DNA of 64,000 nucleotides from Novosphingobium sp. (GCF_027489515.1 NZ_JAIXZS010000083.1:123686-187685), one strand, 5' to 3'; counted from the first letter of the stretch, positions 36,840 through 54,927 are shown. A program made the numbers and translations. Notes: generated by a model not told the origin, from the sequence alone.

Positions 36840-39290
36840 ATGAACATGAGCGACATGATCACCATCCGCCGCGCGATGCTGGCGGGCACGGCGCTTGCGG
36901 GTGCAACGCTGGGGGTGCTGGCAACACCGGCCATCGCGCAGGACGCGCAGGCCACAGAAACCGCCGCAGCGCCCGAGACTGCCGAGATCGTCGTCACCGC
37001 ACAGCGCCGCGAGCAGAAGGCCAACGATGTCGGCATCGCGGTGAGCGTGATCGGGGCCAAGGACATCAAGGCCCTGAACATCGTCAATGCGACAGACGTC
37101 GTGCGTGCGATCCCGAACCTCAAGTTCAACGCCTATGGATCGAGCCAGGTCGTCTACAATATCCGCGGTGTCTCGCAGAACGACTATGGCGACCAGCAGG
37201 AGCCGCCGGTCGCGGTCTATCAGGATGACAGCTATACCTCGTCAATCACCGCGGCGAGCTTCCCGGTGTTCGACCTTGCGCGCGTGGAAGCGCTGCGGGG
37301 CCCGCAGGGCACGCTGTTTGGCCGCAACGCCACGGGCGGCGCGGTGCAGTTCATCTCTGCGCAGCCGACCGACAAGCTCGACGGCTATCTTTCGGCGACG
37401 TATGGCCGCTTCAATCAGGTGGTGCTGGAAGGCGCGCTTTCGGGCCCGCTGTCTGACACGCTGACCGCGCGCATCTCGGGCCAGTACACGCGCGATGACG
37501 GCTACATCAAGAACATCACCCCCGGCCAGCCGGACCGCGGCGCGGACAACCATTGGGCGCTGCGCGGCATCGTGAAGTGGGAGCCGAGCAGCGACTTCAA
37601 GGCCAAGCTGACGGTGCGCTACGCCAAGGCCGACCGTGAGCGGCAGGCAGGCATCTACTCGCTCGAGCCGACGTGCCCCAACGCGCAGTTCCAGGGCGAA
37701 TTCCTCGGGCCGAAGGAATTCTGTTCGTACTGGGGCGTGACGGGCACGACCGGTAACGGTTATGCCAACCCGGCGATCACGCCTTCGCAGGGCGGCAATC
37801 CGTGGCGCACGGCGGGCACCAATGATGCTTATGTCGATCGCGACGTGTTCGGCGCCACGCTGCGGCTCGATGCCAAGCTGGGCGCGTTCGACGTGACTTC
37901 GATCACCGACTATCAGCACCTCAAGAAGTTCTACATCGAGCAGGGCGACAGCGTGCCCGAGTTCCCCTACGTGCCGCAGGGCATTCCGCGCTCGCCCGGC
38001 CCGTGCCCCGCGCCCGCGCAGAGCGTGACCTGCTATGAGAGCGGTACGGTGTTCTTCCAGCGCGCGCGCACCAATCAGGTCAGCCAGGAAATCCGCGCTG
38101 CAGCCACGTTCGGTCAGAACTACCTGACCATCGGCGGCTTTGGCATGATCATCGATGGCAAGTTTGCCGCCAAGTATGCGGTGCCGTTCATCCAGTACGA
38201 TCCGGACGTGAACTTCACCCAGCGCACCGAGAGCTTTGCGTTTTTCGCGCAGGACGAATTCAAGATCAGCGACCAGTGGAAGCTGATCGGCGGCATCCGC
38301 TACTGGCAGGACAAGAAGCGCGGCGTCTACAATGCGGTCGCGCCGACCGGGCCTTATGCGCTTTCGCTCTACTTCGGGCCGGACGATATCCGTTATAACG
38401 ATACGACCGGCACGGTGACGCCGGGCTCGTGGACCTATAGCAGCGGTGCGCCCTCGGGCGTTACGACCACGCCGGATGCAGCAAACCCGACCTTCCGCGG
38501 CGTCACGGCGCGGGCGGAAATCGACTACAAGCCGACGCCCGACACGCTGATCTATGCGAGCTATAACCGCGGTTCGAAATCGGGCGGGTTCACCTTCTCG
38601 ACCGGTACGCCGTTCCCGACGCAGCTGGTCGATGTGCTGAACAACATTCCCTATCGGCCCGAGACGCTCAATGCCTACGAAGTGGGCGTGAAAGCCAAGC
38701 TGCCGGGGAACACGCAGTTCAACCTTTCGGCGTTCTACTACGATTACAAGAACTACCAGGCCTTCGTACAGGTCTTCGCGGCGCAGGTGGTTCGCAACCT
38801 GCCGGCGAAGATCAAGGGTATCGAGGCGGACATCACCAGCCGTCCGATCCCGGGTCTGACGCTGCAGCTTTCGGGCGCGGTGCAGGACAGCGAAGTCAAG
38901 AACGTGCTGCTGCCGGACGGCGTGACGGTGAAAACCAGCGACCTGCCGCAGGCGCCCGGCTTTGCCGGCAATGCGCTGGTGCGGTATGAGTTCGACACCG
39001 GGATCGGCCGTGCCTCGCTGCAGGCGGACGCGCTCTACACGGGCAAGTTCTGCTTTACGGTGATGTGCGCACCGGTGGAGCGCGAGCGGGCTTATGCTGT
39101 GGCGAACGTGCGTGTGGGCTTCACGCCCAAGGACAGCAACCTCGATCTGGCGTTCTTCGTGAACAACCTGTTCGAGCGCAAGTACCGCGTCTATGCCTTC
39201 GACGCCTCGACCTATTGGGGCTACACCACGGGCGTCTATGCCAAGCCGCGCACGTGGGGCGTGAATGCGGTGTGGCACTTCGGGAAGTAA
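36840..39290 (+). CDS. TonB-dependent receptor heading the choline/betaine catabolic cluster
   Basis: Signal peptide, EIVVTAQRRE, EALRGPQGTLFGRNATGGAV, beta-barrel C-terminus. Start at 36840 or 36846. Confidence 0.94.
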   Translation: MNMSDMITIRRAMLAGTALAGATLGVLATPAIAQDAQATETAAAPETAEIVVTAQRREQKANDVGIAVSVIGAKDIKALNIVNATDVVRAIPNLKFNAYGSSQVVYNIRGVSQNDYGDQQEPPVAVYQDDSYTSSITAASFPVFDLARVEALRGPQGTLFGRNATGGAVQFISAQPTDKLDGYLSATYGRFNQVVLEGALSGPLSDTLTARISGQYTRDDGYIKNITPGQPDRGADNHWALRGIVKWEPSSDFKAKLTVRYAKADRERQAGIYSLEPTCPNAQFQGEFLGPKEFCSYWGVTGTTGNGYANPAITPSQGGNPWRTAGTNDAYVDRDVFGATLRLDAKLGAFDVTSITDYQHLKKFYIEQGDSVPEFPYVPQGIPRSPGPCPAPAQSVTCYESGTVFFQRARTNQVSQEIRAAATFGQNYLTIGGFGMIIDGKFAAKYAVPFIQYDPDVNFTQRTESFAFFAQDEFKISDQWKLIGGIRYWQDKKRGVYNAVAPTGPYALSLYFGPDDIRYNDTTGTVTPGSWTYSSGAPSGVTTTPDAANPTFRGVTARAEIDYKPTPDTLIYASYNRGSKSGGFTFSTGTPFPTQLVDVLNNIPYRPETLNAYEVGVKAKLPGNTQFNLSAFYYDYKNYQAFVQVFAAQVVRNLPAKIKGIEADITSRPIPGLTLQLSGAVQDSEVKNVLLPDGVTVKTSDLPQAPGFAGNALVRYEFDTGIGRASLQADALYTGKFCFTVMCAPVERERAYAVANVRVGFTPKDSNLDLAFFVNNLFERKYRVYAFDASTYWGYTTGVYAKPRTWGVNAVWHFGK

Positions 39291-39323
39291 TCGGTAGCCG
39301 GCCTTTGCGGGCTGGCGCCGAAC

Positions 39324-39362
39324 TCCCCTCTCCCAACCCTCTCCCCTCAAGGGGAGAGGGCT
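39324..39362. repeat. Half-copy of a related palindromic intergenic repeat
   Basis: CCCTCTCCCAACCCTCTCCCCTCAAGGGGAGAGGG. The hairpin CCCTCTCCCC-tcaa-GGGGAGAGGG resembles the right arm of the 2176 and 44130 elements. Confidence 0.6.
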
Positions 39363-53048: not shown

Positions 53049-53554
53049 GCGAGGCGGCGCTCAAGGATGCCCTCGCGGCGCTGGGGATCGATTGGTCGAT
53101 CCTCGAGCATGAGGCGGTCTATACCGTCGAGGAAAGCCTTGCGATCCACGATGCGCTGCCTGGTGCGCATACCAAGAACCTGTTCCTCAAGGACAGCGGC
53201 GGGCAGTTCTGGCTGGTGACGGTGGAGCATTCGCGCCGCGTTGACCTCAAGGCGCTGGCCGGCGCGATCGGCGCGAAGAAGCTGAGCTTCGGCAAGGCCG
53301 AGGACATGGAGCGGCTGCTGGGGGTGACACCGGGTTCGGTGACCCCGCTGGCCGCGATCAACGATACGGGCGGCGCGGTGCGCGTGGTGCTCGATCCCGA
53401 ACTTGCGGCGGCGGATGCGGTGCACGTCCATCCCTTGCGCAATACTGCGACGGTGGGCTTGCCGGGCGCGGATCTGGTGCGCGCGCTGGCGGCGTGGGGG
53501 CATGACCCGCTGATCGTGACGATCCCCGAGCGCATGGTCGCCGACCCGGCATGA
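53045..53554 (+). CDS. ProXp-ala/PrdX-like (YbaK/INS superfamily) aminoacyl-tRNA deacylase
   Basis: ATG 53045. [44 protein letters not shown] overlaps with both soxG and sdaA. Confidence 0.85.
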
Positions 53555-54927
53555 CCGTCTCGACCTTCGAGCTGTTCAAGATCGGCATCGGGCCTTCAAG
53601 CTCGCACACCGTGGGCCCGATGGTCGCGGCACGGCGGTTCGGTCTGCTGCTGGAGGAGCGCGGGCTGCTGGCCGAGACGGTGCGGGTCGAGGTCGATCTC
53701 TATGGCTCGCTGGCGCTGACGGGGAAGGGGCATGCGTCCGATACCGCCGTCCTGCTGGGGCTGATGGGCGAGACGCCGTCCGAAATCGACATCGACGCGG
53801 CGCCCGGGAAAATTGCGGCAGTGCATGAGACGGGGCAGATCGACCTGCTCGGCCGGCACCGCGTGCGCTTTGCGCCGGTGGATGATCTTCATTTCCACCA
53901 GCGCGAGCGGCAGCCTTTCCACAGCAATGCGATGGCAATTTCCGCGTTCGGCAGGGATGACGCCATCCTGCTGCGTAGGTTCTACTATTCGGTTGGCGGC
54001 GGCTTCGTGCTCGACGAGGACGAGGCGGGCCGGAATGCGCCTGCGGGGGATGCCGCGCCGGTGCCCTATCCCTTCACGACCGGCGATGAGCTGATCAAGA
54101 TGGCGGGTGAGGCTGGCCTGACGATTGCCGAGCTGATGCTGGCAAACGAGACGGCGCTGCGGCCGCTCGCCGAGGTGGAGCAGGGGCTCGACCTGATCGC
54201 CGATACGATGGCTGCCTGTATTGACCGGGGTACGTCGCAAGGCGGCGTGCTGCCGGGGGGCCTTCGGGTCAAGCGCCGCGCGCAGGGCATCGCGGCGGAG
54301 CTCGTCGCGCGCCAGCAGGCGGCGCTGAGCGATCCGCTGGTGGTGCTGGACTGGATCAACCTCTGGGCCATGGCGGTCAACGAGGAGAATGCCGCGGGCG
54401 GCCGCGTGGTGACCGCGCCAACCAATGGTGCGGCGGGGATCATCCCGGCGGTGCTGCGCTATTACGAACGCTGCTATCGCGGCGATCAGGCGGGGCGGCG
54501 TGTGTTCCTGCTGACGGCGGCGGCGATCGGCGCGCTCTACAAGCGCAATGCCTCGATCTCGGGCGCGGAAGTGGGGTGCCAGGGCGAAGTTGGGGTCGCG
54601 TGCTCGATGGCGGCAGCGGGGCTGACGGCGGTGCTCGGCGGGTCTAACGCGCAGATCGAGAACGCGGCCGAGATCGGCATGGAGCATAACCTCGGACTCA
54701 CCTGCGATCCGGTTGGGGGCCTCGTGCAGATTCCCTGTATCGAACGCAATGCGATGGGGGCCGTGAAGGCCATCGACGCCTCGCGCCTCGCGCTGCTGGG
54801 GGATGGGGAACACATGGTCAGCCTCGACAAGGTGATCGAGACGATGCGCCAGACCGGGTTCGATATGCGCGACAAGTATAAGGAAACCTCGCAGGGCGGG
54901 CTCGCGGTCAACGTCGTCGAGTGCTGA
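53551..54927 (+). CDS. sdaA: L-serine ammonia-lyase (Fe-S)
   Basis: [62 protein letters not shown]. Confidence 0.96.

Follow-up and report, generated by a model that had tools for sequence, protein, structure and literature searches.

A TonB-dependent receptor linked to choline and glycine betaine catabolism in Novosphingobium is a candidate outer-membrane entry route for methylated amines

Choline and glycine betaine are major osmolytes, methyl sources and trimethylamine precursors in soil, freshwater and host habitats. Their canonical uptake systems are the BCCT carriers (BetT, BetP, OpuD) and the QAT-family ABC importers with OpuAC-type proteins (ProU, OpuA, ChoXWV, CbcXWV), all of which are inner-membrane systems to which, to our knowledge, no outer-membrane component has been assigned; the crossing of the outer membrane has hitherto been assumed to occur by porin diffusion. 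In Caulobacter and the Sphingomonads, TonB-dependent receptors (TBDRs) serve as nutrient gates, and substrate-specific, non-iron TonB-dependent transporters (TBDTs) are known from Caulobacter, Xanthomonas and Sphingomonads, namely MalA for maltodextrin, NagA for N-acetylglucosamine and chitooligosaccharides, SuxA for sucrose and DdvT for a lignin-derived biphenyl in Sphingobium SYK-6. Here we describe a stretch of 64,000 nucleotides (the window) from a Novosphingobium sp. draft assembly of 4.29 Mb, 94.6% complete and with approximately 65% G+C (GCF_027489515.1, NZ_JAIXZS010000083.1:123686-187685), in which the gene for an 816-aa TBDR heads a cluster of genes for the conversion of choline to pyruvate.

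The window receptor resembles the nutrient TBDTs named above in having a plug and a 22-strand barrel, a TonB box and no STN domain, in lying in a catabolic locus together with an inner-membrane transporter, and in belonging to a receptor-rich host with no recognisable classical porins. It differs from them in its implied ligand, a quaternary amine of approximately 100 Da (a cation or zwitterion) rather than a sugar, oligosaccharide or aromatic acid, and in showing no above-cut-off relation to any named receptor. We consider it likely, on the comparative evidence given below, that this receptor is the outer-membrane uptake component of the choline/glycine betaine catabolic pathway and hands its substrate to the APC-superfamily permease of the same cluster, probably providing a previously undescribed outer-membrane entry route for small methylated amines. 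An earlier reading of the DNA (the original prediction) had proposed energised outer-membrane uptake of a quaternary amine, and this proposal is now supported by linkage, by two transporter partners and by a shared operator. It also knew of no characterised TBDR for this substrate class, and we likewise found none for choline, betaine, trimethylamine N-oxide (TMAO) or related amines in the full-text literature, a coverage that excludes subscription journals.

We surveyed 79 loci encoding relatives of the receptor, with one genome per species, together with another 76 loci centred on permease relatives; receptors with at least 55% identity were treated as orthologs and 6 kb was taken as the neighbourhood. 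Genes for betB, betA, the APC permease, dimethylglycine dehydrogenase (DMGDH), the Rieske oxygenase or sarcosine oxidase (sox) were found within this neighbourhood in 62 of the 70 ortholog loci, the contigs of the remaining eight stopping within 525 bp downstream of the receptor, and no ortholog locus with enough flanking sequence was without a link to the pathway. The gene order of the window (TBDR>betB>betA>APC>DMGDH>Rieske>sox) occurs at 20 loci, window included. The loci nearest to the window are those of N. sediminis, N. fuchskuhlense and several lake metagenome-assembled genomes, and the block is also present in the cultivable strains N. sediminis NBRC 106119 and N. fuchskuhlense FNE08-7; most of the carriers surveyed are metagenome-assembled genomes from fresh water. 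Other orders join the receptor to the bet and permease genes (betA<betB<>TBDR>APC; betB>betA>TBDR>APC in locus L121; TBDR>APC alone) or to the sox side of the pathway (DMGDH-Rieske-sox<>TBDR; TBDR>DMGDH-sox in L046; soxBDA-ybaK>TBDR), giving at least six receptor gene orders across Sphingomonadales and Caulobacterales. Because the block and the link between receptor and pathway recur across informative loci, the gene cluster is not a chance juxtaposition, and the association drawn in the original prediction held in every informative locus.

Maximum-likelihood analysis unites the Sphingomonadales receptors in a single clade (99-100% SH-aLRT), and at least 11 changes of arrangement fall inside it. 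N. rhizosphaerae, N. capsulatum and N. pokkalii carry betB>betA>APC without the receptor, and in N. rhizosphaerae the ortholog is found 3.2 Mb away from these genes, divergent from DMGDH-Rieske-sox, indicating that the receptor follows the pathway and not one particular neighbour. When permease loci with at least 3 kb of upstream sequence were considered, the receptor was upstream in 47/59 and neither receptor nor betA in 5/59. Adjacency without function, with the receptor hitch-hiking on a mobile catabolic island and importing an unrelated substrate, could be read from the integrase that flanks the module in L035, from the patchy distribution of the receptor and from the REP-like palindromes around it. 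We find this hardly credible: linkage that has outlasted 11 or more rearrangements, spans two orders and holds down to 44% identity, as well as a shared conserved operator (see below), strongly disfavours it.

Using one Caulobacterales relative as query, we obtained ten Caulobacterales loci whose receptors are 44-49% identical to that of the window. In eight of the ten, betA, usually preceded by betB, lies directly upstream of the receptor, and five loci have a GbdR-like AraC/DJ-1 regulator and sox genes within a few kb, including L065, which additionally carries gbcA-gbcB. The downstream side was examined in one locus (L168), where a convergent gene for an OpuAC-permease fusion comes next, together with one for an ABC ATPase; this importer is of the ABC kind classically serving betaine/choline. 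The receptor lineage thus has partners from two inner-membrane transporter families that are unrelated to each other, APC permeases and OpuAC-type ABC importers; the apparent exchange of the inner-membrane partner while the pathway stays constant would be difficult to account for if the receptor served some other class of substrate. The locus shares with the canonical uptake systems its betBA and sox context, the OpuAC-type ABC importer beside the Caulobacterales receptor and, in some Sphingomonadales, a BCCT gene a few genes away. It departs from them in that the 94.6%-complete window genome has no match to BCCT or to an OpuAC-type (PF04069) binding protein, the inner-membrane step being assigned to the APC-superfamily permease.

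A further link between receptor and pathway is provided by an operator-like palindrome, CTWAT-N7-ATWAG, exact copies of which occur twice in the 4.29 Mb genome, both in promoter regions of the cluster (upstream of the receptor and of the DMGDH gene). In 1.37 Mb of related loci we found 38 exact copies, approximately 35 of them at the positions homologous to these two. A copy with at most one mismatch was present within 500 bp upstream of the receptor in 22/23 loci of arrangement A and 7/7 of arrangement D (the survey arrangements being labelled A to D), compared with 18/495 random 500-bp windows, and the copy upstream of DMGDH is kept in at least 20 related loci, among which L041, L043 and L044 have it in the spacer between the divergent DMGDH and receptor genes. 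Arrangements B and C mostly have, at a fixed distance (-250 to -280), the variant YTGAT-N7-ATTAG with two mismatches, together with a conserved promoter-like element, TTGCAC...TAATCAT. A genome scan allowing one mismatch gave 24 extra matches, mostly in AT-rich intergenic sequence, which could not be read as a regulon. The receptor and the DMGDH-sox operon thus appear to share a putative operator, which supports the uptake reading.

The receptor itself has a signal peptide, a TonB box, a plug and a 22-strand barrel, with matches to PF07715 (Plug, 55.5 bits) and PF00593 (barrel, 125.4 bits) in a plug-in-barrel arrangement. Residues 49-60, near the mature N-terminus, read (E/D)IVVTAQRREQK, a motif that we read as the TonB box, and V52, T53, A54, Q55, R57, E58 and Q59 are invariant across 33 receptor sequences, down to 36% identity. 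This invariance favours energised uptake over passive diffusion, and bears on the idea that the receptor is a choline/betaine-selective diffusion channel that works without TonB energy and is needed where general porins are unrecognisable. Such a channel would suit a genome with 54 Plug-domain genes and no match to Porin_1, Porin_2 or Porin_4 in the draft, a search that left out OprB, OmpA/OprF-like and OmpW proteins, and it would have a precedent in the Caulobacter receptor NagA, which reportedly passes N-acetylglucosamine without TonB while larger oligomers need energy. Given the limits of the porin search, and a TonB box that points to a retained TonB interaction in all 33 orthologs, we judge the diffusion channel quite improbable.

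Import of a cofactor or metal for the pathway is another use to which a TBDR in this position could be put, the candidates being an iron-siderophore (for the Rieske and Fe-S enzymes), cobalamin (for the MttB-type methyltransferases of some relatives) and folate or pterin. The best database similarities of the receptor are indeed to siderophore, haem and B12 receptors, in arrangement B the receptor has genes of the MttB family close by, and the pathway uses Fe-S, Rieske and tetrahydrofolate-dependent enzymes. Nevertheless, the receptor falls far under the NCBIfam cut-offs for siderophore (TIGR01783, 137 bits vs 223.5), haem (TIGR01785, 108 vs 317) and B12 receptors (TIGR01779, 63 vs 600), no siderophore ABC or periplasmic binding protein genes are found nearby, and the neighbours that never vary encode catabolic enzymes and transporters for amines (APC, OpuAC-type ABC) rather than cofactor functions. 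There is no STN signalling domain on the receptor and no FecIR, and no Rfam family reached its gathering threshold in the whole window, arguing against control by a cobalamin or other riboswitch; a Fur box was not searched for. Cofactor import thus seems very improbable. Structure comparison returned the generic fold of the class: Foldseek gave a probability of 1.00 to FyuA, Fiu, FpvA, FhuA and BtuB at 13-18% identity, the sequence relatives in the PDB are generic siderophore/B12 receptors that match the plug chiefly, and an AlphaFold2 (AF2) model (pLDDT 76.7, pTM 0.78) has a confident barrel.

The smallest conserved unit consists of receptor and permease. In 15 freshwater genomes of low G+C, TBDR>APC is all that is conserved, with 22-83 bp between the two genes and with unrelated flanks (MFS/LacI, PhyH, ROK, integrase, LysR); in all five of these genomes that were searched whole, true betA and soxB are located elsewhere. 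This module bears on whether the receptor imports free choline or a larger choline conjugate (glycerophosphocholine, phosphocholine, choline-O-sulfate, acyl- or sinapoyl-choline, or a lysophospholipid) that is hydrolysed in the periplasm, the released choline then entering through the APC permease. As a rule TBDRs take up compounds for which diffusion fails because of their size or scarcity, and linkage to betBA fits any choline source. A conjugate route nevertheless appears rather unlikely, as no phosphodiesterase, phosphatase, sulfatase or esterase occurs in any conserved arrangement, the minimal module holds receptor and permease only, and in arrangement D, where bet genes are absent, the receptor is tied to DMGDH, Rieske and sox genes, an association suggestive of betaine or of amines further down the pathway.

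The permease, present as a single copy in the genome, scores above the cut-off of the NF053774 "TMAO permease" equivalog (744 vs 690 bits), and a search for its homologues returned generic names only. It shares with the TMAO permease of Methylocella silvestris membership of the APC superfamily at an above-cut-off score, and TMAO, choline and betaine have the trimethylammonium head in common. In contrast to the Methylocella protein, it is encoded 10 nt after betA and is not accompanied by a TMAO demethylase (Tdm) above cut-off: the best NF053776 match in the window genome reached 184 bits against a cut-off of 1100, and matches in five module-bearing genomes did not exceed 187 bits. These weak matches correspond to the GCV_T domains of SoxA and DMGDH. 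TMAO was therefore rejected as the substrate. Because no Tdm was found and the gene lies directly behind betA, choline or betaine is the likelier permease substrate, and the automatic name "TMAO permease" for 42455-44104 is probably misleading here; we propose the protein as an inner-membrane choline/betaine carrier.

Returning to import of the free amine, the receptor would bind a trimethylammonium compound extracellularly, free choline being the most probable and glycine betaine a possible further ligand, and, energised by TonB/ExbBD, would release it into the periplasm. Carriage of the compound across the inner membrane would fall to the APC-family permease, whose gene is the third after that of the receptor; BetA/BetB, the Rieske demethylase, DMGDH, SoxBDAG and SdaA would then convert it to pyruvate, and one regulator binding CTWAT-N7-ATWAG would switch on both the receptor and the DMGDH-sox operon. 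The ligand, the energisation, the permease substrate and the regulator are the parts of this scheme that we infer from sequence comparison. To the full two-membrane route, with a TonB-energised receptor and an APC permease that both have new specificities for free choline/betaine and are co-controlled with the demethylation operon by a single regulator, we would give an even chance.

Several observations weigh against uptake of choline or betaine by the receptor. At 104 and 117 Da, respectively, choline and betaine are far under the size that usually needs TonB-dependent uptake. The receptor is also rare: among 200 evenly sampled genomes of the order it was found in four. That all four are among the 33 soxB-positive genomes speaks for the link to the pathway, but most choline/sarcosine users of the order manage without the receptor, and betB>betA>APC is kept without the receptor in 7/59 permease loci. 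The receptor is accessory. A stable hairpin lies between the receptor gene and betB, and their co-transcription is therefore not assured. The NCBIfam model names the permease for TMAO. The chance expectation for the exact palindrome, from base composition, is approximately 1.5 copies genome-wide against the two observed; the count alone is uninformative, and it is placement and conservation that carry weight. Finally, the plug is poorly modelled by AF2, with residues 97-167 below a pLDDT of 50, and the structure model, with its generic fold, gave no clue to an aromatic cage.

If the proposed route is correct, quaternary amines would join the TonB-dependent substrates, and few organic TBDT ligands would be smaller than one of approximately 100 Da. 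Sphingomonadales and Caulobacterales of oligotrophic fresh waters could then scavenge methylated amines at nanomolar levels, the receptor gene could mark high-affinity scavenging of these amines in metagenomes, a testable function would be at hand for one of the hundreds of orphan Sphingomonad/Caulobacter receptors, and an APC permease labelled "TMAO permease" by annotation pipelines would be reassigned. What appears to be new, and is supported by the comparisons above, is a TBDT for a new class of substrate, partnered by an APC permease whose specificity is reassigned. The shared operator offers a handle for finding the pathway regulator in Sphingomonads and Caulobacters.

The genes and sequence elements of the locus are listed in Table 1.

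Table 1. Genes and sequence elements of the receptor locus, in window positions; bit scores are followed by model cut-offs where available.
Feature	Position	Strand	Basis and remarks
Operator-like palindrome CTAATGGAAGATATAAG (CTWAT-N7-ATWAG)	36646-36662		194 bp upstream of receptor ATG
TBDR	36840-39290	+	816 aa; Pfam Plug and TonB_dep_Rec barrel
Hairpin	39337-39360	+	10-bp stem, 8 GC pairs, weak T tail; terminator-like scan of 93-nt spacer
betB, betaine-aldehyde dehydrogenase	39384-40790	+	NF009725 781 bits (cut-off 593); TIGR01804 678 (cut-off 669)
betA, choline dehydrogenase	ATG 40777 to 42444	+	TIGR01810 810 bits (cut-off 732)
APC-superfamily permease	ATG 42455 to 44104	+	549 aa; AA_permease_2 229 bits
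Second palindrome copy CTAATACTCTGCATAAG	44267-44283		108 bp upstream of DMGDH ATG
DMGDH-type flavoprotein	44375-46882	+	Pfam DAO, FAO_M, GCV_T and GCV_T_C
Rieske non-haem iron oxygenase, GbcA-like	46887-48128	+	Rieske and Ring_hydroxyl_A domains
soxB	48131-49384	+	698 bits (cut-off 529)
soxD	49395-49667	+	128 bits (cut-off 116.5)
soxA	49664-52528	+	Fer2_4, Pyr_redox_2, SO_alpha_A3, GCV_T architecture
soxG	52521-53048	+	94.5 bits, under cut-off 144; right place and size
YbaK/ProX-type aminoacyl-tRNA editing-domain gene	53045-53554	+	PF04073 tRNA_edit 108 bits; TIGR00011 34 bits, under cut-off
sdaA, L-serine dehydratase (serine to pyruvate)	53551-54927	+	SDH_beta 197 bits, SDH_alpha 292 bits

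The gene list and coordinates of the original prediction were borne out by the open reading frames and by domain and family scores, the uninterrupted plus-strand run having exactly the limits that had been given (36840-54927). BetA and BetB belong at equivalog level to the families for choline to glycine betaine, and the genes of the heterotetrameric sarcosine oxidase follow the order B-D-A-G (48131-53048), with family membership found. The betA gene begins inside betB, with an overlap of 14 nt, and the permease gene, which starts 10 nt past the betA stop, is followed by a gap of 271 bp before the DMGDH-type gene. The DMGDH-type protein reached no NCBIfam equivalog, and its domain architecture and position suggest the role of dimethylglycine dehydrogenase for the product of 44375-46882. 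Similarly, the Rieske oxygenase, which scored 415 bits against the cut-off of 670 for the GbcA equivalog NF058607, is proposed to be the glycine betaine N-demethylase. A tblastn search (E<1e-10) with the GbcB-like reductase of L065 found no GbcB-type reductase in the cluster or the genome; the Rieske enzyme may still work in a GbcA-like manner with another reductase. Since glyA and C1-folate genes are likewise missing from the cluster, "near-complete", as the pathway had been described, is a fair term.

One gene name needs clarification. An open reading frame is present at the place given for proX; it does not encode a betaine-binding protein of the OpuAC type, which was rejected, having PF04073 in place of PF04069, a family without a match genome-wide. 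It is instead a YbaK/ProX-type tRNA-editing gene, wedged between soxG and sdaA and overlapping the soxG stop and the sdaA start. In L054 a copy with 58% identity lies between soxA and the receptor (at approximately 9384), which suggests that its linkage to sarcosine oxidase was kept across a rearrangement.

As a catabolic system, the cluster resembles betaine catabolism in Pseudomonas and Chromohalobacter (GbcAB/BmoAB, DgcAB, SoxBDAG, GbdR/SouR) in its predicted course from betaine through dimethylglycine and sarcosine to glycine and in its GbcA-like Rieske protein, and the Caulobacterales relatives further share with the Pseudomonas-type system the GbdR-like AraC/DJ-1 regulator and gbcAB. Unlike those systems, the window has a DMGDH-type flavoprotein in place of DgcAB, no detected GbcB or GbdR ortholog, a 17-bp palindrome as its putative operator and an outer-membrane receptor in the locus.

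Several candidates for the regulator were considered. The LysR genes that lie beside the locus in relatives (f13, the L035 neighbour and, in the window genome, the copy on C4) were set aside, no specific NCBIfam model matching them, as was a GbdR ortholog, for which the best genome match had 27% identity; no BetI above cut-off was found in the window genome. The CTAAT half-sites of the palindrome may resemble the GcvA boxes of E. coli. An AsnC/Lrp-type gene (33667-34140) lies divergent from a gene for a 791-aa transketolase/PDH-E1-like protein in the region upstream of the receptor (33667-36617), the best NCBIfam matches of the latter (aceE, 184 bits; AKGDH, 167 bits) being far under cut-off. 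This pair is conserved directly upstream of the receptor in the closest relatives only, and the AsnC-type gene was rejected as the regulator on this ground. A sigma-70 scan of 33500-45000 found no consensus promoter, and the promoters of this organism probably deviate from that consensus.

The 93-nt spacer between the receptor gene and betB folds at -49 kcal/mol. In relatives the spacers hold larger nested palindromes (-33 to -127 kcal/mol), while that of L011 measures 14 nt. The hairpin could be an attenuator or an mRNA stabiliser, and the spacer is compatible with, though no proof of, transcription reading through from a first cistron that is stabilised or attenuated. Long nested GC-rich palindromes (...ACCCCTCCG...CCACCTCCCCATTTG...CAAATGGGGAGGTGG...CGGAGGGGT...), with folding energies of -60 to -127 kcal/mol, were seen in the spacers of L001-L016 and L056-L058 and at 44100-44240 of the window; they resemble REP/MITE-type intergenic repeats of Novosphingobium and differ in size between close relatives.

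The window genome contains a second, paralogous demethylation cluster on contig C101 (approximately 5.8-18.3 kb), with a Rieske protein of 39% identity, a soxB-like gene of 50% and a soxA-like gene of 41%, as well as a FAD_oxidored protein 81% identical to one encoded beside betA in relatives. A divergent gene for a 985-aa TBDR lies directly upstream (Plug match at C101:5785-6129), and C101 may be another receptor-plus-methylamine locus. In arrangement D (L041, L043-L047, L049), downstream of the receptor come genes for a PQQ-dependent dehydrogenase that carries a cytochrome c domain, for a different AA_permease and for a protein of the ROK family, and L041, L045 and L046 have a second, adjacent receptor paralog. 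More distant receptors from Steroidobacteraceae (L074-L079, approximately 35% identity) head genes for an AA_permease, an SDR, a class-III aminotransferase, an APH-type kinase, an aldehyde dehydrogenase and a Rieske oxygenase, a set that looks like an amino-alcohol utilisation locus (of the kinase and phospho-lyase type) with a receptor of its own.

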